Of a DNA stretch of 64,000 nt, positions 6,675 to 36,068 are shown one piece after another. A program made the translations under genes and the position numbers. The DNA comes from Anaerohalosphaeraceae bacterium (GTDB taxonomy: Bacteria; Planctomycetota; Phycisphaerae; Sedimentisphaerales; Anaerohalosphaeraceae). The notes under the pieces are model-generated. The model had not been told where the DNA came from. It worked only from the letters and a program-made list of their open reading frames with translations, and ran no database searches. The stretch is taken from positions 8,323-72,322 of the forward strand of contig CAXXSL010000002.1 in assembly GCA_963675525.2 (NCBI GenBank). The letters are read 5' to 3'. Positions within the stretch are counted from its first letter, which is position 1, and every line of letters starts with the position of its first letter.

Positions 6675-8882
6675 ATGAAAGCGAAGCCTTATTTAACAGC
6701 GGTGTTATGTTTTTCTCTGACGATGGCAGCGATCGGCCCGGCTGTAACCTCGGTCATCACACGTCATAACAGCAGTGGGGATTTTCTCAAGGGAAAGACT
6801 GAGGGTGTTATCATCCGCTCGACAGGGACAATCACGTTGGCGCCAAGAACCGAGACCGTTGAGACGGGCGATTTCCTGAAAGATGTCTGGTCGATCCACA
6901 CGATGCTGACCGATGCCGAAGGCGGCGTCTATCTGGGGACGGGGCCGGATGCCAACGTTTTCCGCTATGCTGACGGCGTAGTAACACAGGTGTATCCTGT
7001 TACGGCGACCGGCGATCAGGCGGATGATTCGAGCATGCGCAATCAGCATGTGTTCGCGATGGCCAAAGATCTGGCGGGGCGTTTACTCATCGGCGTTAGC
7101 GGTGAAAAAGGGCAGTTAATTCGGCTGGCAAACGGGCCGGAAGTTGTTTTTGAAGACGAAAAGGTTCAGTATATTTTTGCGGTGGCGCTGGATGAACAAA
7201 ATAATATCTATCTTGGAACCGGTCCGAATGGGTTGATTTATCGACTGGATCCGTTTTGCCAGAATGCAGAGCGGGTCTATGAGGCGCGTGACAAAAATAT
7301 TCTTTCGCTATTGGTTAAAGACGGCGTGGTTTATGCGGGCAGTGACCAGCGGGGTCTTATTTATAAGATCGACCCGGAACAAAAACGGGCCCAGGTGCTT
7401 TTTGATACTGAGCAAAATGAGGTCGCTGATCTGCTGATGGATGCGGACGGTAACCTTTTTGCTGCCGGAACCAATGCGGCGGCGGCGATGCTGCAGTTAA
7501 AGGCTTCAAGGGCCTCATTGAAGCATGCTCCGGGCCGGCCCGACAATGATGAAGAGGGCGATGGTGGTGAAGGCGAAGAAGAATTGTCTTCGAATACGGC
7601 GGGGTCGCTCAATACGGCTAACGGGGATGACAAAACTGACAAGAAGGAACCGACCAAACCTGAGCCGCAAGCCCCCAGACCGCCGGCGGCTAAAGTGGCC
7701 GGGCATATTTACAAGATCAGTCCGGACGGTTTCGTTACCGATATTTTCGACGAAATGGCCGTGTTTTATTCGCTGCTGGAGTTTGACGGCAAGTTATGGC
7801 TGGGGACCGGCAATAAGGCGCAGCTTTATACGGTCGATCCGGCAACGGAAGAAAAGGCCGTTTATTATGAAGATGAAACATCGTCACAAATCACCTCGCT
7901 GCTGGCGGTCGGCGATGTGTTATATATGGGCCTGTCCAATCCGGCCCGGCTGGTGCGTCTGGAAAAAGGGACGGTTGCCGAGGGTGTTTATGAATCCGAA
8001 TTGATCGATGCGGGGCAACCCGCTCGTTGGGGCAAGCTTCAGCTTGAAGCGGACATTCCAAGCGGCTGCGAAGTTCTTTTGGCCAGTCGAAGCGGCAATG
8101 TCAAGGAGCCGAACGACCCGACCTTTTCGGATTGGTCCGCGGACGCGGTAGTAACACGGGCGACCGATCTGGATTGTTCGCAAGGACGTTTTTGCCAATA
8201 TCGGCTGACGCTGAAAAGTGCGAACCGGACATCGTCGCCGGAGATTCGCGAAGTCGCTGCGGCGTTTGTGACCCCGAATCTGGCGCCGAAAGTCAAAGCG
8301 ATCAAGATTCAGCGAAACCGGGATAAAGGTAAGCCGACTATTTATGATATTAGTTTTGCCGCTTTGGATTCCAATAAAGATTCGCTGGAATTTACGCTGG
8401 AGTTCCGCAAGTTGGGTCGTACCGGCTGGATTCTGCTGAAGGAAGAGTTGGATCGCTCGCCGTTTGAGTGGGACAGCCGAACGGTTGAAGACGGCCGGTA
8501 CGAAGTTCGTGTAACAGCCAATGACCGTAAAAGCAATACGGTTTCGACAGAGATGACCGGTTCACGCATCAGCGATCCGGTTGTTATCGATAATACCGCA
8601 CCTGAAATCCGGGAGTCCGCCGTGAGGGTCGACGGCAATTCGGCACAATTGGTGTTGTTGGTCGAGGATGCTTATACTGTTGTGGGCAAGGTTGAATACA
8701 CGGTTGACAGCAACGACAAGTGGATGGGAACCTTGCCGGACGACAAAGTTTATGATACACTGGCCGAAGGCATTACGATCCAGATCGACGACTTAACGTC
8801 CGGCGAACATGTGATCGCGGTAGCGGTCAGCGACGACCTGGAAAACACACGGTATAAAACGTTTGAGGTGACGATTCCGTAA
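6675..8882 (+). CDS. Secreted beta-propeller protein with C-terminal Ig/FN3-like domains
   Basis: Signal peptide, repeated blades (YLGTGP, YAGSD, WLGTGN), acidic/Pro linker, WDSRTVEDGRYEVRVTAND, DNTAP. Confidence 0.7.
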   Translation: MKAKPYLTAVLCFSLTMAAIGPAVTSVITRHNSSGDFLKGKTEGVIIRSTGTITLAPRTETVETGDFLKDVWSIHTMLTDAEGGVYLGTGPDANVFRYADGVVTQVYPVTATGDQADDSSMRNQHVFAMAKDLAGRLLIGVSGEKGQLIRLANGPEVVFEDEKVQYIFAVALDEQNNIYLGTGPNGLIYRLDPFCQNAERVYEARDKNILSLLVKDGVVYAGSDQRGLIYKIDPEQKRAQVLFDTEQNEVADLLMDADGNLFAAGTNAAAAMLQLKASRASLKHAPGRPDNDEEGDGGEGEEELSSNTAGSLNTANGDDKTDKKEPTKPEPQAPRPPAAKVAGHIYKISPDGFVTDIFDEMAVFYSLLEFDGKLWLGTGNKAQLYTVDPATEEKAVYYEDETSSQITSLLAVGDVLYMGLSNPARLVRLEKGTVAEGVYESELIDAGQPARWGKLQLEADIPSGCEVLLASRSGNVKEPNDPTFSDWSADAVVTRATDLDCSQGRFCQYRLTLKSANRTSSPEIREVAAAFVTPNLAPKVKAIKIQRNRDKGKPTIYDISFAALDSNKDSLEFTLEFRKLGRTGWILLKEELDRSPFEWDSRTVEDGRYEVRVTANDRKSNTVSTEMTGSRISDPVVIDNTAPEIRESAVRVDGNSAQLVLLVEDAYTVVGKVEYTVDSNDKWMGTLPDDKVYDTLAEGITIQIDDLTSGEHVIAVAVSDDLENTRYKTFEVTIP

Positions 8883-21179: not shown

Positions 21180-22229
21180 TCAGTCCTCAGGCAACGGCGG
21201 GTATAATTTTTTCAGACAATCCATAATTATTTTACCGTCGACATCGATGACTTTGCCGTCCTGAAAGATAAATGTTTCGCTGGGAGGAAGGGCGCGAAAC
21301 CAAACCTGGGTCCCGTTGGGGATATCATCCGGCAGAAAAGAGCCAAGTTTCTCATGATCCGGATCAAGAATGATCTGGGTGAAAGAAATTTCGCATTCCT
21401 CGTTTGTGTGAATATCATTTGAATGACTGACACGTTTCATTTTAGAGGTTTTCGGCAGCCATACTTCACCGACTTTTTCAAATTCCACCACTTCAAACAG
21501 CCCTTTTGCAGTTGCATTTTCTCTGAGAACATCGTCATAAATACGATCTCCGGATTTTCGCTGAACCCTGATACGCGCAATGTGAAAATCATGAACCGGA
21601 TCGATCCAGACCGTATACTCGCCTCTGCCCGGCACAGTTGCTTCTAGGACATAACAATCTACTCCGCGAACATTGTTTCTTTTTTCCCGCAGTTGAAGCG
21701 TAGCAAACGTCTGCAAAAAAAGCTCATTGATCGGAACATCATCACCCCAATGGTATCCCATGATTTCCCCGAAATGCGTATGTTTGAAGGATTCTGAACA
21801 GACTTTTTCATGATCGCCCGGATCACTTTTTTTTGAGATGATGACGTTGCCGGACGCTTTATTATGTCTATCAAATATGTAACCTGTTTGACCATCCCAT
21901 AAATCGCTGTGATAGTCCGCATCTTCCTCTTTGACATCCCTGTCCCGTATACTGATATCTCCCCATAGGTACGTAATATTCTTACAGTGCTGTCCGTCAA
22001 AGCGCCATTCATGCTTTCTATACCCGGTCCCCGTCCCCTTAAATCCAGTATAGATATAAGTGCTTTTTTCATAAGATTTTACGATGAAAGAGCTTAAATT
22101 TTTCCGAGATTTGGCAAATTGCGCCAGCACCTGACGGGCATTGCTGAAATCCGGGGATTCGTCTCCCCCTGCTAAAAGGGAAAGGATCAGCAGGTAAATA
22201 ACAGGCACAAATTTGAGCGGTGTCTTCAT
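21180..22229 (-). CDS. Secreted hypothetical protein, paralog 3 (possible LolA/MucB-like fold)
   Basis: Signal peptide; shares CYVLEA, YTVWIDP and DPDH..LG.F motifs with 27079..28119 and 28142..29164. Confidence 0.7.
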   Translation of the reverse strand: MKTPLKFVPVIYLLILSLLAGGDESPDFSNARQVLAQFAKSRKNLSSFIVKSYEKSTYIYTGFKGTGTGYRKHEWRFDGQHCKNITYLWGDISIRDRDVKEEDADYHSDLWDGQTGYIFDRHNKASGNVIISKKSDPGDHEKVCSESFKHTHFGEIMGYHWGDDVPINELFLQTFATLQLREKRNNVRGVDCYVLEATVPGRGEYTVWIDPVHDFHIARIRVQRKSGDRIYDDVLRENATAKGLFEVVEFEKVGEVWLPKTSKMKRVSHSNDIHTNEECEISFTQIILDPDHEKLGSFLPDDIPNGTQVWFRALPPSETFIFQDGKVIDVDGKIIMDCLKKLYPPLPED

Positions 22230-22232
22230 TTT

Positions 22233-25200
22233 CTATTTTTCCTTATTTTCGGGCTGTTCCGGTGCGATGCCTCCCATGCCGCCACCGTAGCCACCACCCA
22301 TCATACCGGCGCCGCCCATCCTGCCGCCTGCGGGGATCGACGGGGCTTCCTGTTCCTGTTGTTCGATGACGGTTGGTTTGATGAGAATCAGCAGGCGCTG
22401 TTTTTGTTTTGAAACAGTTTCGGCGTCTTTTTGTTCGGTTGTCAGTTCCGGGCCGATGATCAAAATGGTTCCTTTGCTTTCGACGGTTGTATAGATGGGG
22501 ATTTCCGTCACCTGCATGTAGGGGATGTCATAGCTCTTGTCGTTGTGCTGTTGGGTTCGGGTTTCGAGGATGTCTGAAATCATGGCATGGACTTTGAGCA
22601 GGACTTCTTTGCCGTCATTTTGAATGACCGGCAGGATGTCGAGCGTGACGCCTTTGTTGATATCTTTTTCTTTGTCATCCATGTTGAGATAACGGGTTTC
22701 CGTTTGAACCTGTATTACAGCGGATTCGTTATTCAAGACCGCAACTTTTGGAGCGGTTAATGTTTTTGCGTTTTTATGTTGCTGGGTTGCTTTGATGAGA
22801 GAACTTGTCTGCAAGTCATCCAGCACATTAAAGTTGTCAAACGGCAGGATTCGTTCGGTCAGTGGTTTTGGTTCGAGTGCGGCTTTAATCGCGTCAGAAT
22901 TGGCGGGGCCTTCGATGACCTGTCCGACGATCTGGCGTGGGTCATTGATGCCGATGCCGACGTCTTCGAGGAACTTATCATCGACCATAATAAACCGGGC
23001 TTCGATGGCGATTTGGTATTTGTATAAATCGTCTCGGACTTTCTGCAAAAATTGTTGTATCTTTTCATGCATCTCGGGCGTCTGCCAGATGATCAGCTTG
23101 CTGTTGTCGTACGAATCAATTTTGCCTTCGCCGCCGTTGTCGAACCAGGTTGAGGGCACGACGGACTGGACGATGGTTTGTTTCAGCTCTTCGAGTTTTT
23201 CGGCAGGCTGTTTGGCATCTTGTTGACCGGTATTAAAATCGCCCGGCTGTACGATAAGATCAGTGACATCATAGATCTGGGTGCGGCAGGGGGTCGGCAG
23301 GGAGGCTTTGGTGGCGACGGTGATGATACCTTCTTCGATGACAAAATCCAGAGGTATCAACCCGTCTGAAATTGTATGCAGAATGGTCTTGAGCCCGAGA
23401 TCCAGGGTCATGGTGCTCAGGCCTTCAATGCCGATGGGGGTGGTTTTGTCAATGGCGGCATTGTCCTTCAGGTCGTCCCACAAGATGATGATTTTCAGCG
23501 GCGAGGTCGTACTGTTGCGGATATGGTCGATGGCTTCGGCCAACGTTGTGTTCGAGGTCAGCGGGGAAAAGTCGATTTTGGTAGCGAGTAATTGTGCCTT
23601 TTTCAGGCGTTCCGCTTCCAGGGCTTGTGGCGTATTCATCTTTTCCGCATGTCTTCGAGCAAATTCGGCCGTATTGGTAGGGTAAGGTATATTATCAACC
23701 GTCAAAAACTCACTTAATTGTTCTTTTTTGACAAATACAACATGGCCATCCGCAAAGAGCAATGTCGTGCCGTCCTGATTTTTTAAAAGTGAATTATCAT
23801 AGGCGATCATGGTCGTTGCGGTATTCGAAATATTGGTTCTGTCTTTCATCCCTAACAGAAGGACGTTGTCGAGAATCCAGTAATAGATTTCTTTGTCCAG
23901 ATAGGGTTTAAGGTCTTGTAGTTCAGATGGTGGCTTCTTGTCATTATTATCCATAAACATATAATACGTGATACCCAGTTGGCGCAGGTGATTCATGCTT
24001 TCCAGGCGGGCGGTGTGTAAATCCAATGGCTGTTTGCTGTCGGATTGCGATGGACTCTGGATTTTTTCTTCCTGCTGTTTAACAATCGCGTCCCATTTTT
24101 GGGGAAATTGGACTGATTCTTCGGGCGTGCCGCCGAACCCGCCGCCCATGCCACCACCGAAACCACCACCGCCCATCCTGGCCGGAGGTGATTTTGCTGC
24201 GTCTTTTAAAGAATCTTTTTTTTTCAAAATCGTCGGCTGGATCAGCAGCAGTTCCATACCTTCTCCGGTTTCGTACCCGCCGACAGCGAATGCATATCCC
24301 GGAAGGAAAGTCACCTTCGATGTGATGCTTTGCATTGTGACACTGTCCTGACCCGCACTGATCGACCGTTGAAAATCAATTTTCGTTCGTATACTCTTGC
24401 CGTCCGGGGCGATGTGATTATTGACTTTGAGTTTGATGTGCTCAGGACCAATTTTAACCTCTGCATCTTTATTGTCTAAAGATAATATTCTGGGATTGGC
24501 AATGATTTTGGCTTTGGGATTATGTTTAATAGTGCTGAGAAAGACTTCAAGTTTTTCAGGCGAAATCATGATCGCTTCGGACTTGTCCTGCGGAACGATC
24601 TCTTTCAGTATAGGCATATCCGCCGGAACACTGACAAGATATGCTGTTGTGAGCATCTGCGGCCGCGCATCATCTGTTGATTCCTCTGGTGTAATTGGCA
24701 AAACACCAATCTCCATGACGGTTCTATTGTGTTTGTCGATTTCAAATACCAGGCCTTTATCCTCGTAGCTAAGAACGTCTTTATACGCCGTTTCCTTAAG
24801 ACGAAAATCATTGCCAAAGGCTTGTTCGACCTTCTGCTCGGAATCACCGATTCCCAAACCACTGGCGAATCTGTAAAAAGGACTAATCGCAGTCATCTCT
24901 TTGACGGAATCGTCCTGTATCCTGAAGGAAATATGATCAAAAGATATGTAGTATTTTGCCGGAAGATTCTCAAGCGTGTATCTTTGTTCCCCGTAGAAAA
25001 CTAAATTCGGTTTTCCCAGACTTTCTAACACATCATCCTTGGTCATACTAAATGTGTATTTGCCAACACGCTCCCCCGGCACGATTATCTTGTCGGTGAT
25101 GTTGCTATGTCCGCCTCCATAACCATCATCCGAATCGGCGTATTGGTCAGCCGGAGAGTTATTGCTATCGACTAAATCGGTTCTGGAGCGATATAAATTC

Positions 25201-27062
25201 GACAGGTTTTCTTTGAGTTCCTTATCTTGTTCCGCCGTCAATGAGGTCAGATCGGGCAACCTCTCACGCAGGGTTTTGATTGCTGCCGGGCTAAATTTGT
25301 TTGCCGAAAGAATCTTTAACGTAAGAAATGTCTTTGCCTCATGCAAAAAGTTTAGTCCGTCATCCGTGAAATTGCCGCATACGGTTACATAGTGCAGTTG
25401 TTTCATGTTTGCAAGAGAAGGAAGACAGTTATCTGTTAAATAGAGACTCCGGCAGTAAATTTCTGTTAAATTATCCAAATCTTTCAAATAAGCAATTCCG
25501 GCGTCCGTAACCATGGAACTCTTTTTGCCGCCGCCAATGACTAATTGTTTTAGATTTTTCAGTTTCTTTAAACAGACTAAATCTTTGTCATAAATAGGAG
25601 CATCAAACCTGAGCAAGAGTTCCTCAAGTTTAGTTAAACCAGAAATATCGAGGCCTGAATCGTCTTGTATTATGCCGAAGTCGACTTGTAATTTTGATAG
25701 ATTATGTAACGCATTCAGATGAGATAAACCTGAGATCGTGATATTTTGGCAACTACTTATATCAAGTTTTTCCAATAACTTCAGTGTTTTCAGCCTGGCC
25801 AATCCTTCGTTTGTAATCGACTCAACATATACGAGATTAAGTTCTTTCAAATTGGTTAGCTTTGCAAGGTCATCCATTCCGATATCAGTGAACCTTATTC
25901 CGCCGATCAACAGGTATTCCAGGGATTGAAGCTTCGATACATGCTTTAGAGCGGTATTGGTGAGCGGACTGTTTGAGCTGCCGCAAACCCAAAGATGTTT
26001 CAGGTTTTTTAACGTTGCAATGTGTGCAAGACCTTTATCCGTTATGCCATTGTTGGGGAGATCCAGGTATTCTAATGAACCGATCTGACCCAAATGCACC
26101 ATCCCGGCATCTGTAATTTGTCCCTTCTGGCCCCTTTTGCCAATGTTCAGTTTCTTTAAAGACCGCATCGATGTTAAATGTGCCAACCCGCCGTCTGTCA
26201 CCTCTGTATTGAAAAGGCTTAAATCTTCCAGCCCCTTAAGGCTTGATAAATAACGCAATCCTTTGTCTGTGATCGGCAGATGATTCAGGTCGAGGGCCTT
26301 TAATGTGGTGATATTTTTCAGATGGTATAATCCCGCATCGTGAAGTTTCCGCTGTTAAGACTCAGGTCACGCAGCAAGGGTAAATCTTTCAGGCATTCTA
26401 ACCCGGCATCGGTCATGCTGCCGCTATATAAACCCAACTCTTCCAGATTCGTCAACCTGGGAAGACAGTGCTTCAATCCTGCATCGCTCACCTTGTTTTC
26501 AGCCACATATAATCTTTTCAAAGCCTTCAGTTGTGCGACATAAGATAAGCCCTTATTTGTCAATTCTTTTGGCGGTACTAACAGTTCGAGTGTTTGCAGT
26601 TTTGTGATGTGTTTCATACTTTCCGTTGTCGTTGTTGCTTGAGAAAGCCATAGACTTTTTAAGCCGGTAAGATGTGTGATCTGTTCCATATCTTTATCGG
26701 AAAGCAGATGATTTTTTTTCTCCAGTCCATCGGCATAAATGACAACAGATATACATCATCCGGCTTGAGATTTAACAATGGTGAAAAATCTTTAAAGGTA
26801 TTTTCATATAGAAAGAGGCCCCACGATTTGACCGGCTGGTACTGTAACATCACCTTTCGCCTCCTGGTAATCAGGTTGCCCGTACCAACTTTGGAAATCA
26901 TCGAGTTTCTCTTTCCCGCCGGCATCCTGAACCATGATTCTGCCCAGCGCCCGGTCTTTGGGGAAATGCAGGACACGCTGGGGTGTTGATGTCTCGGTTT
27001 CGGCGGCCATTACCGGCGAGGCCATCAAAACAGAGGATTGTGCACATCAGATATTTTGGCAT
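22233..27062 (-). CDS. Frameshifted secreted LRR protein with H-X9-DG and secretin-like modules
   Basis: ATG 27062 (MPKYLMCTIL) joins ORF pieces 26804..27028, 26659..26976, 26318..26689 and 22233..26258 through about 4 frameshifts; LRRs, FADGHV, STN-like region, LTAPKVAVLNN. Confidence 0.7.
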
Positions 27063-27078
27063 TTTGTTTTCCTTCTAT

Positions 27079-28119
27079 TTAGTTTTCGGCTTTTCTCAGG
27101 CAATCCATGACTGTCTTGCCGTCGGCGTCGATGAACTTTTCCGTCCTGCCAAATAAACTCTTTATCAGGAGGAAAAGCTCCCAGTAAAGCCTTCGTTCCA
27201 TCAGGAATATCATCCGGAAGAAAAGGCCCAAGGGCATCATGGTCCGGATTAAGGATTATCCTGGAAAAAGAAATTTCTTTTTCCTCGGTTGCATGATAAT
27301 CATTCGGTTGATTGGCCTGTTTTATTTTACAGGTTTTGGGAAACCATACATCTTCTATTTTTTGAAACTCCAGCACCTCAAAGAGTTCTTTGTGCGTTTC
27401 ATTTTCCTGGACAACCTGATTCCAAATACGATCCCCTGTCTTTCGCCGAACCTGTACACGAGCGATATGGAAATCATGAACCGGATCAATCCAGACGGTG
27501 TATTTTCCCCTTGCCCGGCACATCCGCTTCGATGACATAACAATCCACCCCGCCAATATTGCTTTTTTTATCTCGGCAACCGAAGTGTTGCGGCAGATTG
27601 TAAAAACAACTCTCCAATTCGAACATCATCGCCCCAATGATACCCCATGATTTCTCCGACAGGCGTTCTTTTAAAGGCTTCCGAACAGACACCCTTTTTG
27701 TCACCACGATCGATTTTTACTCCGGAAACACGCTTGCCCACAAAAGGGTTTTTTCCATAACTGTAAATATAGGCTGTTTGCCCATCCCATAGACTGCTTT
27801 GATAATCTGCGTCTTTCTCTTTGACATCCCTGACCTTTATATTGATATCGCCCCAGAGATACCAAATACTCTTATATCGATTCCCGTCAAATCGCCATTC
27901 AAATTTACTATAGTTTATCCCTGTCCCCTTAAACCCAGGGTAAGTGTAGGTGCTTTTTTCATGGGCCTTTACGATATAAGAATTTAGGTTTTTCCGAGAT
28001 TCTGCAAATTTATTCAGTAACTCCACCGCCGTAGACGTATCAGCTGCCGTAGACGTATCAGCGAAGACTGTACAGGGTAAAAAGGCCAAAACGAAGATTA
28101 CAACCGTTATTTTATCCAT
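27079..28119 (-). pseudogene. Frameshifted secreted hypothetical protein, paralog 2
   Basis: Pieces 27568..28119, 27486..27707 and 27047..27556 are collinear with 21180..22229; three shifts; reconstructed end VIDADGKTVMDCLRKAEN* at 27079. May be sequencing error. Confidence 0.7.
28028..28062. repeat. 18-bp in-frame tandem duplication
   Basis: GCCGTAGACGTATCAGC(T) x2, encoding ADTSTA twice. Confidence 0.85.
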
Positions 28120-28141
28120 GCTTATCTGCTTTCTATCGTGT

Positions 28142-29164
28142 TCATTTTATTCTCCGGCCCCCCTCGACAATTTTGCCGTCCTGCCAATAATAGTTAATTT
28201 TGGAAACACCGCTTTTGTCTATCAATCTGAACCAAGCCCCATTTTGAACATCTTCGGAGTCAAACGAGCCGATGGCATCATGGTCCGGGTTGAATTTGTA
28301 TTCACTGGCTTTGTACTGGATGGTTTCACGGTAGTTGTATTTGCCGGGAATTTTCCAGTCATAGAGAATCCTGGCTTCGACGGGAACCCATGTGCCGTCG
28401 ATTTGCTCAAATTTGACATTGTCCAGGCAGGTGTAATATTGTTCGTTTTTTTCCACGTTTTTTTCGCCGCCCAGCATGTCGCCTTCTTTGCAGAGATATT
28501 TTGCTTTGGCCAGATTGCAGCCGTGGTCCGGGTCGATCCAGAGTGTGAACTTGCCTCTATCGGTAACCGCTTCAATGACATAACACTGATAATCACCAAC
28601 CGTCTGCATTTGATCGTGAACACGTATATTATCCGCATTCCGCAACAACTCATCGATGCGCTCATCATTTGCATAAAGATACCCCAGGGCCTCATGTCCC
28701 TTAAAAGCGCGGCTTAACGCCATCGCAGTTCTTTGAACGGGGTCATAATCATGTAATTTGCTGAAAGTCCCGTGTCCCGGGTCGGATGTCATATTGGGTC
28801 TGCCGTACCACCTGTCAACCTCATGGCCAATAACCAGGCTACTTCTGTACATGGGATTGTCCTTGGGTACGTTCCGAATCGCCAGGCTGAGATCGCCGTA
28901 CATAACTTCCCGCCTATTGACCCGCATCTTGTCCCGGTCAAATCGAAAATCGTGCAGACTGTTGCTGTCACAATGGCCGCCGGGGAATTGCGGACTGAGT
29001 GATTTTATCGTATATTGTCCTGAGGTTTGTGTTTTGGCGGTAAAAGAGTTAAAGACCTCCTGTGTTTTGGCGAACTTATCAAGGAGTTCTTTGGCAGTCG
29101 GCGTCTCATTTGAAAATGCAGACACGTTCAATAAGCAGACGATAATGCTGATACCGGCCTTCAT
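28142..29164 (-). CDS. Secreted hypothetical protein, paralog 1
   Basis: Signal peptide, AKELLDKFA, CYVIEA, FTLWIDP, NPDHDAIGSF, WQDGKIV; start overlaps the M56 gene stop. Confidence 0.75.
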   Translation of the reverse strand: MKAGISIIVCLLNVSAFSNETPTAKELLDKFAKTQEVFNSFTAKTQTSGQYTIKSLSPQFPGGHCDSNSLHDFRFDRDKMRVNRREVMYGDLSLAIRNVPKDNPMYRSSLVIGHEVDRWYGRPNMTSDPGHGTFSKLHDYDPVQRTAMALSRAFKGHEALGYLYANDERIDELLRNADNIRVHDQMQTVGDYQCYVIEAVTDRGKFTLWIDPDHGCNLAKAKYLCKEGDMLGGEKNVEKNEQYYTCLDNVKFEQIDGTWVPVEARILYDWKIPGKYNYRETIQYKASEYKFNPDHDAIGSFDSEDVQNGAWFRLIDKSGVSKINYYWQDGKIVEGGRRIK

Positions 29165-32100
29165 GGATTCGGCTCCTCTTTTGGGGTGCCTGGGGGTTGG
29201 TCATAGGAGACTCCGCCGCCGTAACCGCCCATGCCGCCACCGAAACCTCCTCCCACACCGCGGCCGCTGAAGCCGCCTCCCATCCCACCGCGTACAGGGA
29301 TAGATGGAGCTTCCTGTTCTTGTTGTTCGATGATGGTGGGTTTGATGAAGACCAGCAGACGCTGTTTTTGTTTGGAAACAGTTTCGCCGTCTTTTTGTTC
29401 GGTTGTCAGTTCCGGGCCTTCAATCAGCATTGTTCCTGAGCTTTCAACCATCGCGTAAATCGGAATATTGGCGACCTGCATCATGGGGATGTCATCCGGC
29501 GTTTCAGGGTCATTTTCGAGAATATCGGAATATTGAATGTATCCCCTGAGCAGTACTTCTTTGCCATCGTTTTGAATAATCGGCAGGATGTCCAGTGCGA
29601 CACCCTCGCCGGCATTTTTTTCTTGGCCATCAATGTCAATGTATGGCCAATCCTTGAAAACTCGCATCGTGGCGGATTCTCCATTCAAGACGCAGACTTT
29701 CGGGGCGGTGAGTACTTTGACGTTTCGATACGCTTGTGTGGCTCGAAGCATGGATTTGGTTTGCAGATCGTCCAGCGTTTGCTTTTTTTGCAAGGGCATT
29801 TCTTTTTCCGGCAGCGGTTTTGATTTCAGTGCAGCGAGGATTTCTTCCGAATTAGCCGGGCCGACAACAATGCTCCCAACGCTGCCTGCGTTATCATCCA
29901 AACTCAAAGAGGCATCTGCTCCAATGTTTTCCATGATACCGTCCGTAACCAACATGATGCGGGTTTCGATGGCGATTTGATATTTGAACAAATCCTCTCT
30001 TAATTTGCTGAAGTAATTTCGTAGTGTCTCATGTACCTGCGGTGTTTGCCAGATAATCAGTTTGCTGTTGGCGTATGAATCCATTTTTCCTTCGCCGCCG
30101 TTTTCAAACCAGCTTTTCCAGGCAATGGTTTGGATAATTGTCTGTTTTAAAAGTTCGAGCTTTTCGGCCGGGTTTTTTGTTTGCCCAGGATAACTTAAAA
30201 TATCTGCGACGTCGTAGATTTCCGTCCGCATTGCGTTGGGATCTGCTGAACCCGGATTTGCCGTATTTTCGTCGCGCTGTTGGACGATTTCGTCCCAGTT
30301 TTTGGGGAATTGGATTGAATCGTCATCCGGGACACTGCTTCCGCGGGCGCTGCTGAAACCACCCATGCTGCCGGCGGCTGGAGCCGATGGGACCTGGGGC
30401 GTTGTCATCTCAATTTTCACATCACTTTTTTTGCCGGGATACAGAGAGACATTTTTGAAGATAACTGTTTGGGTGGGCATGGTTTGAAAGTGGAATTTAT
30501 CAATTTTTCGGAGTGATAAATCAAATTCGGCCTGGCAAATCTGATGTTCGGGAGATTTGTTTTCAGAGCTGCTGAACCAACGTAAAGACTTTGGCATGTG
30601 AACCTGGCCTTGCCTGTCCACTGCCACGAACCGCCATTCCCGGGCATGAGACAACAACGTTGCGGAAATGCTTGTCTTGCCCCATGTTCCCCTGGGTTTA
30701 TTGATGATGACCGTTCCTAATTTTGTCTCTACCGGGATTGAATATTCTGGTTTCCAATATGCACTTTTTGTGGCCAGTGTTTCCCATGGGCCTTGTCCGA
30801 TTGTCGCAAAGATGTCCACAGCCGGCTGTTCATCGTGCAGTGTAAATGAATAGCCGAAAAGATGGCATAGATTTTGCTCGCCCTTTTTAACGCAGAAAAA
30901 TTCGGGCCATGACTCCGGCGGAGAGGAATCGTTATGAATATTGATGCTTATTAACGGAGCTAAATCAGAGTCAGGTGCTGATTCCAGACCATTTATTCGA
31001 AAGACCATTTGCCGGGTTTCTAAGGGTTCTTCATATCTCTTTGTGGTTCCATCCCAAAATACATCTTTAACAGGGCTTCCATCCGGACTCCACCAATGCC
31101 CACCATCTGCCGGTATATAGGCTATTCCCAACAGTTCAACAGTAATGCCATTGGGTAAAGTAGCTTTAAAGTCATTGTTTATTGCATTCGGTTGATTTTT
31201 AATCGATCCAATTTCTATGATGCCGGAGCCTGTATTGGTCACCTCTATACGTTGGTCTACTTTAATCATGGCGTTACCGATTTGAATTGTGGCGTTGCGA
31301 TCAAAGTATCCCGTTCCATTGGGGCCAAGCAATATTTTGTTCTCTGTTTTGTCGGTGTTTATTTCAACAATGTCAGAACCAATGTTTATTGCTTCTATAC
31401 GTTTGTCGACGTTAATCATGAGCTGGCCGATTTGAATCGTGGCGTTGCGGTCAAAGTACCCTGTTCCGTTAGGACCCAGCAAGATCGTGTCATTTTTCGA
31501 TTGTGCCGGTGCGGTCGCGGGCGGATTTTTTGTGGATTCGATGACAGCCGGCCTGTATCCGGCGATCCAGTTAATTTTCCATACATTGTCTTCTTTGACA
31601 AAATCAATGGTCCATTGTGTATTATCACAGGCTGCCTGTAATTTCAGCGTGCCGTTGTCTGTGAAAGCCTTGAGGGGTTTAAGTTTCAGGAAATCCTCTT
31701 TTTCCCATACAAAGCCCGAATCCAGCGGGTGTGTTGGCTCCATCTGTTTTTCAAACGCCTCGAACCCGCGCCTTTGGTATTCACACTTTTGATAGTCTTC
31801 GGAAAACAGTTCCCATGCATCGGCATACTGTTTGTTGCGGATGTAGTCCTGAATCATAGTGAGCGTTTTAGAGGTTTCCTCAAATTGGGATGTTGTAACA
31901 GGATGCAATGTTTGCGGGATTTGACGTTTCGGCAGAATCATCCCTCTGTAAGACTGTTGAAAATAACGTTCGGCGAATGGCTGTTCGTAATCGTAATTGG
32001 CTTCGCTGGCCGGGTTGTAATATTTGACGCGTACATAAGTGTTTTCCGTGACCGGTCCCTGGATTTTATAGATAAACCGTACGCGTTTGGTTTCACCGGG

Positions 32101-33708
32101 CTGAAGTTCTTCGAAGAAGACCGTTCCCCAGCCGATACCGTCCGGGCCGTAATCGGGCGAGCGGGTGTAAATATGTACACCGAGAAGTTGTTCGGTGTCC
32201 GACGTGTTTTTCACCGTTGCATAAAGCGTATTGTTTCCCTGTGCAACGGGCTCCAGTTCGGTGTTAATGACTTCGATATGGTTTAACGGGCTGGATAAAT
32301 CGCCGCCGTAATCCTTAAGTTTATCTTTTTTGCTGAATTCGACATGGCCGTCGGCGAAGACGACAGTGGTGCCGTCCTGTGTGTCCGGCAAGGTTTTGTC
32401 ATAGGCGACAGGTGTCGTGGCGGTTTCGGCCGGGGTGATGTTTTTTGGGGCGTCTAACAGGACAATATTTTCGGCAACCCAATCAAAGGTTTCCTCGTCC
32501 ATATAGGGTTTGAGGTCTTCAATATCACTGGGAGATTTACCTCCGTTCTCGTCTCTGAACAGGCAGTGAGCCAAACCCAGCTGTCGCAGGTTGCTCATGC
32601 GTTGCACGCGGCTATCGTCTACCGTTTTGTCAGCGGGTTCATTTGGTGTTTGTGCTGTAAATGCGACTGTGGAAATCAGTGCGATTATCAGTGCGAAAGT
32701 GACCACGGTGGGTATCCAGCCGGATTTTGGGTGTTGGGGGGTGCTTTTGTCGACGAGGCGGCTGATGCGGTGCGGCAGGTATCCGCCGTTTGCGGCGACG
32801 GCGAGGTCGTGTTGTTTGGTGCGGATGGCTTCCATGCTGAACAACGCTTTGGCGTATTCTTTGCGATTTTGCAGCAGTCCGATTGCGATGTCGTCGCAGG
32901 CGTTTTCGCGTTCGATGCGAATTTGTGTGGACATCCACCAGACGGCGGGGTGATAGAAGCCGAGAATCTCAATGACGGTCTGGGCGATATTGACGAGATA
33001 ATCGCATCGTTTGATATGCGCCAGTTCGTGAGCAATCATGGCCTTGAGCTGGATTTCGTCCAGTCCGGTCAGGGCTGTGGCGGGCAGTAAAATAACGGGT
33101 TTGAGCCAGCCGATGACAGCGGGAACCTGCACCAGCGCCGATTCGGCGATATGGACGGCCCGTTTGACGCCCAGCCGGGATGCCAGTTCAGATGTTTTTT
33201 CGATGACTGCGTCCGAAACGGCTTTTGTGCCAATCCGGCGGAGCCTTTGCAGTTGGCACCAGCCGCCGAGATACCAGAGGCTCAACGCCGCAACGCCGCC
33301 GATCCAGCCGATGACGCAAAAGGGCAGAGCCGCTTCGAGTTTGGCGGTGAAAGTGTCCAGCAGCGATTTTTCGGGTAATGCCGGTTCGTCATAAGAGATA
33401 ACGATGTTTTGTGTTTGGGCAGGCGGCGGAGTGGTTGAAACTGCCGGAATTTGAACAGGTGCGATTTCGCCGGCAGCGGCGGGGGTGTGATTGTCCAGCA
33501 TCATAAAAGTCACCACCGGGGCCAGAACCATCAGGCTAAGTCCGATGCAGGCGGTTAGGTAGCGTGTGTTTGATGATGTTTTGCTAAGTGTCTTCAGTGC
33601 GCACCCCATTAAGGCCATGATGACGCAGCCCTGCCAGAGGAAATGTACCAGTACCCAGCCGATGCGCTGGACGGTTTGTTCGGATAAAAATGCTGTGAGT
33701 GTGTCCAT
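29161..33708 (-). CDS. BlaR1/MecR1 (peptidase M56) sensor with H-X9-DG and secretin-like C-terminal modules
   Basis: LVHFLWQG, AHELAHIKRCD (HEXXH), YHPAVWW, ERENACD; then FADGHV, an NTF2-like segment and a secretin-like end. Confidence 0.9.
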   Translation of the reverse strand: MDTLTAFLSEQTVQRIGWVLVHFLWQGCVIMALMGCALKTLSKTSSNTRYLTACIGLSLMVLAPVVTFMMLDNHTPAAAGEIAPVQIPAVSTTPPPAQTQNIVISYDEPALPEKSLLDTFTAKLEAALPFCVIGWIGGVAALSLWYLGGWCQLQRLRRIGTKAVSDAVIEKTSELASRLGVKRAVHIAESALVQVPAVIGWLKPVILLPATALTGLDEIQLKAMIAHELAHIKRCDYLVNIAQTVIEILGFYHPAVWWMSTQIRIERENACDDIAIGLLQNRKEYAKALFSMEAIRTKQHDLAVAANGGYLPHRISRLVDKSTPQHPKSGWIPTVVTFALIIALISTVAFTAQTPNEPADKTVDDSRVQRMSNLRQLGLAHCLFRDENGGKSPSDIEDLKPYMDEETFDWVAENIVLLDAPKNITPAETATTPVAYDKTLPDTQDGTTVVFADGHVEFSKKDKLKDYGGDLSSPLNHIEVINTELEPVAQGNNTLYATVKNTSDTEQLLGVHIYTRSPDYGPDGIGWGTVFFEELQPGETKRVRFIYKIQGPVTENTYVRVKYYNPASEANYDYEQPFAERYFQQSYRGMILPKRQIPQTLHPVTTSQFEETSKTLTMIQDYIRNKQYADAWELFSEDYQKCEYQRRGFEAFEKQMEPTHPLDSGFVWEKEDFLKLKPLKAFTDNGTLKLQAACDNTQWTIDFVKEDNVWKINWIAGYRPAVIESTKNPPATAPAQSKNDTILLGPNGTGYFDRNATIQIGQLMINVDKRIEAINIGSDIVEINTDKTENKILLGPNGTGYFDRNATIQIGNAMIKVDQRIEVTNTGSGIIEIGSIKNQPNAINNDFKATLPNGITVELLGIAYIPADGGHWWSPDGSPVKDVFWDGTTKRYEEPLETRQMVFRINGLESAPDSDLAPLISINIHNDSSPPESWPEFFCVKKGEQNLCHLFGYSFTLHDEQPAVDIFATIGQGPWETLATKSAYWKPEYSIPVETKLGTVIINKPRGTWGKTSISATLLSHAREWRFVAVDRQGQVHMPKSLRWFSSSENKSPEHQICQAEFDLSLRKIDKFHFQTMPTQTVIFKNVSLYPGKKSDVKIEMTTPQVPSAPAAGSMGGFSSARGSSVPDDDSIQFPKNWDEIVQQRDENTANPGSADPNAMRTEIYDVADILSYPGQTKNPAEKLELLKQTIIQTIAWKSWFENGGEGKMDSYANSKLIIWQTPQVHETLRNYFSKLREDLFKYQIAIETRIMLVTDGIMENIGADASLSLDDNAGSVGSIVVGPANSEEILAALKSKPLPEKEMPLQKKQTLDDLQTKSMLRATQAYRNVKVLTAPKVCVLNGESATMRVFKDWPYIDIDGQEKNAGEGVALDILPIIQNDGKEVLLRGYIQYSDILENDPETPDDIPMMQVANIPIYAMVESSGTMLIEGPELTTEQKDGETVSKQKQRLLVFIKPTIIEQQEQEAPSIPVRGGMGGGFSGRGVGGGFGGGMGGYGGGVSYDQPPGTPKEEPNP
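31204..31485 (-). repeat. Intragenic tandem repeat, 150-bp (50 aa) period, two copies
   Basis: ILLGPNGTGYFDRNATIQIG occurs twice, starting at 31485 and 31335. Confidence 0.9.
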
Positions 33709-33710
33709 TG

Positions 33711-34091
33711 TTATTCCTCCATCTTATCTAATAATTGGCGGATTTTCTTTAACTCTTCCGGGGAGACCTGTTTGGCTGACAGTGCCTGCATGACCAGTTT
33801 TCCCGCGGAACCGGCAAACACCTTGTCGAGCATGTTGACAACAATTTGTTTTTGGGTCTTTTCTTCGCTGATAGCGGGCTTATAGATGTGCTTGAAGGGG
33901 GCGTCGTCCCGAATCAGCAGGCCCTTTTCGGTCATGATCTGCATGAATTTCAGCGTGGTGGTATAGCCGGTTTTCTGTTCTTTGGCGATTTCATCGTTGA
34001 CCTGGCGGACGGTGGCCGGTCCGCTGGCCCAGAGCACCTTCAGGATTGCCAGTTCTTTTTCGGTGGGGTATTGTTTTTTTTCCCGTGCCAT
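33711..34091 (-). CDS. BlaI/MecI/CopY-family repressor
   Basis: TEKELAILKVLW, ATVRQV, YTTTLKFMQIMTEKG, FAGSAGKLV; immediately upstream of the M56 gene. Confidence 0.95.
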   Translation of the reverse strand: MAREKKQYPTEKELAILKVLWASGPATVRQVNDEIAKEQKTGYTTTLKFMQIMTEKGLLIRDDAPFKHIYKPAISEEKTQKQIVVNMLDKVFAGSAGKLVMQALSAKQVSPEELKKIRQLLDKMEE

Positions 34092-34158
34092 TTTATCTCC
34101 TTTTAAAAGCCTGTTTCTGTTGTTATGACGGTTTTAAAGCTAAAACGTTACACGAAAT

Positions 34159-34235
34159 TACGAAGAGTTTCGTATAAATATAAAAATACGAAGCTCTTCG
34201 TAGGTTGTCAATAAAAAACTACGAATTTTTTCGTA
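34159..34235. promoter_or_regulatory. Three TACGAA-N4-TTCGTA operators overlapping the blaI promoter
   Basis: Palindromes at 34159-34174, 34187-34202 and 34220-34235; minus-strand TTGACA(34211-34206)-17-TATTTT. Confidence 0.85.
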
Positions 34236-34355
34236 TTTCTTTAAGGAAGGCGTATTCGGGGTAAGATTTTCTTTCCGGCGTTGGGTTTTAGTGGTAAAAT
34301 GCTGTTTATTGGCTTTATTGATAACTTATTGGGGCTGTTTTTAGGGAGTGATTCA

Positions 34356-36068
34356 ATGTTGAACATAATGACGTGTCGTGGGCGGGGTATTTGTTTTTGT
34401 TTGGCCGCGTTCCTAATACTGGCTGTTTCTCCGGCATGGGGGTATGAAGACCGCGGCCGGAATCGCCGGGAAAAGGAAGAAAATCCCCGCAAAGAACAAC
34501 TGCGGCAGGAAGCGCAGGAATCGGTTTCCGAAGTGAAAGAACTGCTGACTCAAATTTTGCAAGCGGTCAATAAAAATCAACCACCCCAGCAGGAGTTGAT
34601 TTCGCAGGCCGTGACAATGATTGAGGAAAATAAGCATTTTGTGTTGGCTTATGAGGACGACCAGAAGGCCCAATACATGCTGCTTCAGGCATGGACGGAT
34701 TATTATCAAGGCAATCTACTCGATGCGATGAACTGGTCGCTGCGTGCCTGTAAGATGGACGCATCCAACGGTGATGCGTGGATCAGTCAGGCGGTGTTCT
34801 GCCAGTTAAACGGTAAACGTCCACTTGAACCGCGCATTCGAAAACCCGATTCTCACCGGAATCAGGAAAATGGCGGGGACCGCCAGCCGCGTCGTCGTCG
34901 AGAAAATGAGGCGCCGGATAATGACCGCTATGCGTCTGCGTCTGAGCCGTATGGCCGCAAGGGTACGCTGGATTTTAATTTGTCGGCATTACGCAAAGAG
35001 ATGCTGAAGGAACGATTCGGCCGTATTGAATATCGTGACCCGGCCGGGAAAACGATCGAGTACAAGCCCGGTGGGGATACACTCTGTATTTTTTTCTGGC
35101 AGATCGAGCCGATTGCTGCTGACGCCAACGACCTACCCGGCAAGCCGGCAACCGGACGTTTGGTAAATGATAATGAAATGATGAATGGCAATATCATTCC
35201 ATTAAATAACTCGCAGAATTTGAGTCTCAGCAATCAGGGACGGTATTTTGGCGATATTTATGAGGTTATTAAAGACCATCCGCAAATTACCTGTTTCTCG
35301 CTGAACACCAATGGCCGCCAGGATGCTGAACAAGTAGCCACAGGCATGGACGAAACGGTTGCTCTTGAAATGATGCGCACACCGGGGGTTTATGCGTCCG
35401 ACCCGGCATCTGGTGCAGGTTCGTACGTGGGACTGGAGGCCCAAGTTCCGTTTGTGCTGATTGCGGACAAAGAAGGTATTGTCCGGTATGCCGGTCCGGC
35501 GGCAGATTTTATGCCGGCGTTTGTCCTGACACACCTCACAGGCGTCGAGATTTCCCTGAATGCGTCAGAGCAATCTCAAGCCCAAAGTCCTGTTCGCGAG
35601 ATGAGAGAGGATTTTGGAGAGATGAATGAACTGCTGCTTCGCAGGGTGATTCCAGAAAGAAATCCCAACAAGCCGACGATGGACCCCAATGTTCCCATCG
35701 CAGATCCGAACGTGCTGGTTTCAAAGCCGAAGGTCGCCCAGCCGGTTGTTGCCAAGCCCAAGCCGGCTGTCGAGACCAAACCGGCCGCTGCCAAGCCGAA
35801 ACCGGCACCGGAAGAAACCGTCCAGTATCGCCAGCTGCCGTTGGAAGAAGATGTTCAGGCTCAAAAGGAATTAGTGGGCGCCGATACCTTTATGCAACTG
35901 GCAAAGAAACGCGGCCTGACTTATAAGCGCGGCGTGGACATGTGCCGGGCGATCATCAAAAAGTATCCCGGGACCCAATATGAACACGAGGCCCGGGAGT
36001 TACTAAAACAGGTTCCGGAGCATAAGCGCGGCACCTATAACATTACCGATGAAGAATTAGGACTGTAA
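34356..36068 (+). CDS. Secreted hypothetical protein with TPR-like and thioredoxin-like regions and a Pro/Lys linker
   Basis: ATG 34356 after AGGGAG; signal peptide; AWTDYYQG helix; VPFVLIADKEGIVRYAG; AKPKPA repeats. Confidence 0.6.
   Translation: MLNIMTCRGRGICFCLAAFLILAVSPAWGYEDRGRNRREKEENPRKEQLRQEAQESVSEVKELLTQILQAVNKNQPPQQELISQAVTMIEENKHFVLAYEDDQKAQYMLLQAWTDYYQGNLLDAMNWSLRACKMDASNGDAWISQAVFCQLNGKRPLEPRIRKPDSHRNQENGGDRQPRRRRENEAPDNDRYASASEPYGRKGTLDFNLSALRKEMLKERFGRIEYRDPAGKTIEYKPGGDTLCIFFWQIEPIAADANDLPGKPATGRLVNDNEMMNGNIIPLNNSQNLSLSNQGRYFGDIYEVIKDHPQITCFSLNTNGRQDAEQVATGMDETVALEMMRTPGVYASDPASGAGSYVGLEAQVPFVLIADKEGIVRYAGPAADFMPAFVLTHLTGVEISLNASEQSQAQSPVREMREDFGEMNELLLRRVIPERNPNKPTMDPNVPIADPNVLVSKPKVAQPVVAKPKPAVETKPAAAKPKPAPEETVQYRQLPLEEDVQAQKELVGADTFMQLAKKRGLTYKRGVDMCRAIIKKYPGTQYEHEARELLKQVPEHKRGTYNITDEELGL

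Follow-up and report, generated by a model that had tools for sequence, protein, structure and literature searches.

What does a BlaR1-type switch sense, and what does it induce, when no β-lactamase follows it? The question is raised by an operon on the minus strand of a 64,000-nt stretch of an Anaerohalosphaeraceae bacterium (Planctomycetota, order Sedimentisphaerales; assembly GCA_963675525.2, contig CAXXSL010000002.1, forward-strand positions 8,323 to 72,322), the whole of which is called the window here. In this operon, three operators are followed by blaI, a gene for an M56 protease fusion, X1, X2, a gene for a leucine-rich repeat (LRR) fusion, and X3. Like BlaR1-BlaI and MecR1-MecI of Staphylococcus aureus (PMC9834060), it has a BlaI repressor, an M56 protease with HEXXH and EXXXD motifs, and palindromes over its own promoter. 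Unlike these systems, the window operon has neither a penicillin-binding sensor nor a β-lactamase; its sensor carries a modular arm of 1160 aa, and the genes presumably regulated encode exported arm modules and LolA-fold proteins. Approximately 15,000 M56 proteins in 254 architectures have been counted, of which ~6% are β-lactam-binding, and ~94% of BlaR-like proteins are without a known signal (CenIR preprint, 10.64898/2026.04.08.717257). Here we describe the M56 arm as an exchangeable ectodomain with an apparent free counterpart in the same operon, and tentatively favor a "sense and sponge" role for the system.

Exact matches to TACGAA-N4-TTCGTA number three in the 4.12-Mb genome, where 0.27 would be expected, and all of them lie at the promoter-like site ahead of blaI (Table 1). 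Allowing up to two mismatches, the motif was found upstream of blaI in all six genus orthologues examined; two of five unrelated blaI genes had single degenerate copies only, and the rest had none. In S. aureus, BlaR1 cleaves BlaI directly (PMC9834060), and by this analogy the palindromes are predicted to be bound by BlaI, and BlaI to be cut by the M56 protease. The operon is likely to be self-repressed, and it would be the whole or the main regulon of its BlaI. A preliminary description of this DNA had proposed three operators, a BlaI-controlled operon with an M56 switch, and this gene order on one strand with gaps of at most 22 bp. All three points are borne out, by the palindromes, by the BlaI (Table 1) and M56 (PF05569, E 6e-32) matches, and by gaps of 2, -4, 22, 16, and 3 nt once assembly errors are removed. 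No minus-strand terminator was found at the end of the operon, which contains no export genes. A divergent gene for a 595-aa exported protein of no family (window 34281-36068, plus strand), which also lies beside blaI in G001, G002, and G011 (36-55% identity), is separated from the operon by the region that contains the operators and could be regulated together with it.

The M56 fusion retains the protease motifs (HELAH, i.e., HEXXH, at 227-231; EXXXD at 268-272, with E268 and D272) and has four long hydrophobic segments (16-38, 50-73, 124-148, and 328-354) and a weaker one (190-213). The BlaR1 model NF000326 matches it with 95.6 bits (cut-off 400) in the protease part alone, and no transpeptidase or penicillin-binding sensor domain was found in it by profile search. 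Its arm consists of an H-X9-DG-like domain (366-467), an Ig/CARDB-like and helical module (471-730; an Atlas search with residues 470-730 gave nothing at 0.9 or above), a short repeat (735-845), an unnamed module (845-1100), N3 and a trimmed secretin domain (1157-1471), and a Gly-rich tail. Six genomes of the genus have an orthologue (M56 part 56-71% identical) and a seventh has a fragment; three of the orthologues share the upstream neighbors of the window gene. Wherever they are assembled, the orthologue arms all differ: one of 1112 aa has an STN-secretin end, one exceeds 1127 aa, one of 1479 aa has two H-X9-DG domains and a mini-secretin and is followed by a free 685-aa H-X9-DG-STN-secretin gene, and one of 1620 aa has three H-X9-DG domains and a secretin. 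No X gene lies behind any assembled genus orthologue, the switches of G002, G007, and G008 included. The M56 arm is an exchangeable periplasmic ectodomain, which turns over at one locus while the operators are conserved. The genome has a second BlaI-M56 pair (L001:6919-12843, G000:C13; 1231 aa, M56 24% identical) with other operator-like palindromes, and the next gene there is a free one of 608 aa that ends in an H-X9-DG-like domain. Tandem BlaI-M56 pairs or M56 genes with differing arms, up to 2677 aa, occur in L220, L221, L223, L225, L092, and L027.

The window sequence itself has three frameshifting indels in X2 and four in the LRR gene, between 26338 and 27575; translated in three frames, this part proved to contain X2 together with the real 5' portion of the LRR gene, with the coding frame changing along the way. 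Logan contigs of sequencing run X1 (runs X1 to X3 are not to be confused with the proteins) differ from the window over this stretch by exactly seven indels and no substitutions; two of the seven were also seen in run X3. Among the holders listed for this DNA, none was RNA. Together the seven indels restore the frame, so that X2 has 345 aa and the LRR protein has 1608 aa and a signal peptide, in place of the 1341-aa open reading frame (ORF; 22233-26258) shown by the window, and a pseudogene reading of the two genes is thereby ruled out. Because the run X1 contigs restore the frame and a frame change is absent from all 31 orthologous genes compared in other parts of the assembly, the breaks are local assembly errors; the latter count also means that the errors cluster in the interval where a sister haplotype, described below, diverges.

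The restored LRR protein has no membrane helix and consists of a signal peptide, a cap, an LRR solenoid, a BamE/CAP-assoc-like module, a mini-secretin, an H-X9-DG-like domain, STN/N0, N3, a trimmed secretin domain, and a Gly-rich tail. The cap, LRR, BamE-like, mini-secretin, H-X9-DG, STN, and secretin modules are each found in M56 fusions elsewhere, and the protein is therefore, judged by its modules, an M56 ectodomain in detached form, with its own signal peptide. One such fusion, P0181 (2142 aa), joins M56 directly to an LRR cap and has two modules of the window's M56 arm as well. The 30 best LRR-cap loci of the order include 4 BlaI-M56::LRR fusions, 3 loci behind an extracytoplasmic function sigma factor (ECF), and 10 behind or fused to X, the profile having been built from X-neighboring LRRs and hence favoring X; among 13 further LRR loci, a biased pick by long frames or kinship, 9 are M56 fusions. 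Weak similarity of the LRR part to internalin and XopL models scores well under cut-off and stems from the repeat alone.

Sequencing runs X1 and X2 come from one sample, and a 4849-nt contig of run X2 joins part of the M56 gene (14 differences over 32920-32776) to the LRR gene (42 differences over 26676-26439) with 451 other letters in between, becoming identical to the window from about 26200 on. The three pieces are in phase with one another, and joined they would make up 1943 codons. Run X1 holds a variant of 26324-26439 at depth 4.5, and its contigs break off on either side of the interval. Within this one sample, a sister strain apparently has another arm (M56::LRR), and the diverged flanks of the replaced interval point to allelic exchange rather than to a fresh deletion.

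Both giant proteins match Secretin PF00263, and their C-termini are 56% identical over 326 aa. An AlphaFold model (STN-N3-secretin, pLDDT 84) made from LRR ORF residues 886-1310 found secretins alone among the top 29 Foldseek matches listed, and VIA aligned it to GspD with Z 11.6 (rmsd 4.8, 199 aligned). The secretin-derived, closely similar C-termini of the preliminary description, for which it had suggested AlphaFold as a check, are thus real. While the fold is that of GspD, PilQ, and BfpB, the window secretins lack the amphipathic loop, a feature reported for every solved secretin, with a presumed role in initiating membrane insertion (PMC6532946). The free proteins most closely related to the window copies are secretins of ~1000 aa from the same group; compared with these, the window copies have a polar stretch in place of the amphipathic helical loop, and two more segments are ~20 aa shorter. 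The loop motif was found in none of 12 M56/LRR fusions versus 55 of 57 other secretin matches, with a pattern loosened from a stricter first version after its misses were seen; 3 of 8 other secretin matches in this genome also miss it. An export channel or pore made by these domains is unlikely, because the membrane-inserting loop is absent from the fusions. A recent duplication of the two tails is ruled out by 67% nucleotide identity over 975 nt, with a longest identical run of 31 nt. This run (window 29388-29418 and 22424-22454), within a stretch ~87% alike, is a possible recombination point and could delete X1-X2-LRR. The probable parent secretin (G000:C13:2-2158, L004) is cut by a contig end, and its STN is 48% identical to that of the LRR protein; a 261-aa frame (G000:C11:484258-485040) is a stand-alone mini-secretin without the loop pattern.

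The H-X9-DG-like domains are 46% identical over 102 aa. They resemble the DUF1559/H-X9-DG pilin-like proteins in a FADGH motif and a weak DUF1559 match (PF07596 E 0.29); unlike these proteins, they are internal, have no N-terminal prepilin cleavage helix, and stay below cut-off (15.1 and 12.3 bits against TIGR04294, cut-off 19). The earlier claim that both giants carry such a domain therefore holds for its being shared, while the family assignment falls below threshold. The sensing half of the "trans-envelope sensing or export module" proposed there is supported, while the channel half is not, given the missing loop and the orthologues with other ectodomains.

The X3 model (pLDDT 89) was aligned by VIA to LolA3 9tp6 (Z 15.0, rmsd 3.7, 202 aligned) and to 4z48 (Z 14.9; next 14.4), and Foldseek matched it to RseB 3m4w (E 9e-8) and MucB (5e-6) at TM 0.24-0.26. 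PF17131 was matched in 4 of 31 X members (best E 1e-4), the Atlas gave PF17131 at 0.89 and otherwise unnamed clusters only, and sequence searches of the PDB gave no useful match. As modeled, X is a family with the half-barrel LolA fold (LolA/RseB-fold). It comprises 868 representatives at 50% identity and is present in 122 of 401 genomes of the order; LRR-cap is present in 109 of the 401.

X1 is 26-29% identical to X2 and X3, which are 60% identical to each other, and all three have closer relatives outside this genome (60, 66, and 75% for X1, X2, and X3, quick tree). In-place triplication was considered and is ruled out, with a single X1-X3 clade rejected at p-AU 8e-50 (quick tree, 26 of 59 rows). 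For contexts, 146 X loci were collected, or 134 after near-duplicate removal, 43 of which have 6 kb of upstream DNA. Of the 134, 44 have several X genes, 23 an LRR-cap gene, and 2 a secretin fusion upstream, and X is fused to a switch in 7 (ECF 4, M56 3). A switch lies upstream or fused on the same strand in 17 of the 43 (14 ECF, 3 BlaI/M56), compared with 2 of 43 for the opposite strand and 90 of 1924 for long ORFs of this genome; the loci come from related, non-independent genomes, so that 17/43 is an enrichment and not a test. In L103, X1-like, X2-like, and LRR genes follow in this order at 60, 42, and 55% identity with no secretin, for which reason X1-X2-LRR looks like an imported cassette. 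The preliminary description is not supported here: the partners it called triplicated are not so in the strict sense, being divergent and having closer relatives elsewhere, X is hardly a dedicated secretin partner with 2 of 134 loci behind such a fusion and none of three secretin-ended genus orthologues followed by X, and growth by cassette duplication in place gives way to accretion and exchange from an order-wide pool, which the data fit.

Several further X contexts were observed. A fourth X paralogue (L002:8016-8843, G000:C19) stands alone, with no switch and one frameshift near its 3' end. The site behind a GT4 glycosyltransferase gene is occupied in 16 loci (L031, L038, L042, L044, L045, L048, L054, L057, L061, L073, L087, L094, L110, L114, L157, and L163) by an ECF (8), a BlaI-M56 pair (2), or a bare X/LRR array (6), and is a hotspot for switch-type swapping. 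L086 has tandem ECF fusions (ECF.X, ECF.X, ECF.LRR, ECF.carboxypeptidase-regulatory repeats, and a short ECF). Another conserved setting of X is seen in L009, L012, L050, L053, L135, and L147, where X relatives adjoin or are fused with peptidase C39 and rhodanese and where MauE and TPR genes lie close by.

Table 1. Features of the BlaI-M56 operon, in window positions.
Feature	Position	Strand	Evidence
Operator 1, TACGAA-N4-TTCGTA	34220..34235	.	exact palindrome
Operator 2, in promoter spacer, overlaps -10 box	34187..34202	.	exact palindrome
Operator 3, downstream of -10 box	34159..34174	.	exact palindrome
Sigma70-type promoter-like site, TTGACA-17-TATTTT, 10/12	34183..34211	-	consensus match only
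blaI-family repressor, 126 aa	33711..34091	-	PF03965 E 5e-25; genus orthologues 73-85% identical
M56 protease fusion, 1515 aa	29161..33708	-	family profile matches, motifs
X1, predicted exported LolA/RseB-fold protein, 340 aa, distant subfamily	28142..29164	-	fold inferred from X3 model
X2, 345 aa in the organism; assembly-error indels 27575, 27507, 27134	27079..28119	-	run X1 contigs
"LRR fusion," putative detached ectodomain, 1608 aa after correction; assembly-error indels 27027, 26819, 26712, 26338	22233..27062	-	
X3, predicted exported LolA/RseB-fold protein, 349 aa	21180..22229	-	model pLDDT 89; Z 15.0 to LolA3 9tp6; RseB 3m4w E 9e-8
Interval apparently replaced in sister haplotype by ~1 kb diverged DNA, joining M56 to LRR gene in frame	26200..32920	-	one contig

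Taken together, we lean toward a BlaIR-type switch with an exchangeable ectodomain that induces free copies of its arm modules and LolA-fold proteins as "sense and sponge," although we would put this at slightly under an even chance. The tethered M56 arm would bind an envelope ligand, and the ligand-bound arm would activate the protease, which is predicted from BlaR1 to cut BlaI. With BlaI lost, the operon would make more sensor, free arm, and the three LolA-fold proteins, and these free modules and X proteins may bind the same kind of ligand and so shut the signal off. In the canonical BlaR system, the sensor and the induced effector share the penicillin-binding fold. It is because the same shared-fold logic fits here that we favor this reading. 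From the origin of the modules, one might guess that the ligand is unassembled secretin or pilin subunits or a mislocalized lipoprotein or lipid; the LolA-fold cavity of MucB binds lipid (PMC7400510). Several points weigh against it. Only two modules are common to the free and the tethered arm (46 and 56% identical), so that the two arms may differ in what they bind. X also occurs outside switch operons, as 26 of the 43 loci have no detected upstream switch; it occurs in only 2 of 14 other genomes of the genus, and the switch presumably works without X, judging from the three orthologues with none behind them. The sister haplotype is one contig of depth 4.2 from one run of the sample, and its in-frame join had a prior chance of one in three. 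Moreover, promiscuous fusion is equally expected from neutral shuffling (PMC7671368).

Three other explanations were weighed. The X proteins may be co-sensors like RseB and MucB, which would hold the switch off via the Gly-rich tail or another part and release it on lipid entry; we regard this as doubtful. Like RseA-RseB and MucA-MucB (PMC7400510), the system has a LolA-fold periplasmic protein behind an envelope switch with a disordered tail, and the Foldseek matches of X3 agree with this. The ECFs that head X arrays are RseA-like, with a sigma part, a membrane helix, and a disordered tail of mostly 130-170 aa. Of the genes immediately preceding X, 12 of 52 end in a Gly-rich tail, compared with 2 of 43 of those following X and 7 of 1924 in the genome as a whole, and both window giants have such a tail followed by X. 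However, RseB and MucB are absent among the 50 VIA matches listed, and X has no counterpart of their second domain; compared by fold alone, X is nearer to the single-domain LolA3/DUF1329 type, and unlike RseB and MucB it comes in arrays and fusions. The M56 fusion of G002 has the Gly-rich tail with no X behind it, the tail motif is missing from 7 of the 18 switch genes that precede X, and a single tail does not readily explain arrays with several divergent X genes.

About equally improbable, in our view, is a neutral scrapyard, in which a duplicating switch lands in or recombines with arrays of exported genes and takes these up as C-terminal extensions, so that a promoter is shared and no joint job exists. 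A model of neutral capture has been published for the ECFs of planctomycetes (PMC7671368), and it would account for the extreme patchiness of X and LRR-cap in the order and for the mixed occupancy behind the GT4 gene. It sits poorly with operon genes that are intact, tightly coupled, and furnished with signal peptides, with the recurrence of the X1-X2-LRR order in L103, with operators conserved while arms turn over, and with the uniform loss of the secretin loop. Finally, it is highly unlikely that the two secretin domains form an outer-membrane ring tied to the inner-membrane protease: the STN-N3-secretin fold is genuine and other secretins of this genome are possible ring partners, but the loop is replaced, two segments are shortened relative to the parent secretins, many M56 arms have no secretin, and the operon has no export genes.

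A bolder reading, which we consider rather unlikely, would be a diversifying periplasmic surveillance system across the order, in which two unrelated heads, ECF and BlaI/M56, draw on one cassette pool, including disarmed secretin and pilin mimics, swapped between strains by recombination; a cassette would be a receptor in its tethered form and a decoy or immunity protein in its free form. If true, there could be, e.g., cassettes against phage or toxin proteins aimed at the bacterium's own pilus machinery.

Diverse C-termini of M56 proteins are known already: CenIR (10.64898/2026.04.08.717257) and PvmSR (10.64898/2026.08.03.742534) resemble the window system in having M56 with a non-β-lactam C-terminus. 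In the available text of these two preprints, there are no secretin, LRR, or LolA-fold modules, no free arm copies in the regulon, and no Planctomycetota. Planctomycete ECFs with captured extensions (PMC7671368) likewise combine a switch head with varying modules behind it, and X and LRR modules of the window type are also fused to or behind such ECFs. Unlike in those ECFs, the head in the window is predicted to be a repressor-cleaving protease, and the kit serves both switch types and also occurs free with a signal peptide. The accessible part of PMC7826278 holds nothing specific. No paper on these planctomycete operons was found in a literature search largely outside the subscription journals. 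Such architectures may be listed in large planctomycete genome surveys. What is new is that one kit, both fused and free, is common to two switch types; the X family with its fold and the apparent arm swap in one sample are new as well.

The locus offers a handle on the missing signals of BlaR-like proteins, with a regulon apparently bounded by three unique operators and with free copies of sensor modules. The two arm variants that apparently coexist in one sample are a further handle on this question. In addition, X is a large unannotated family, of the LolA/RseB fold as modeled, that is tied to envelope switches.

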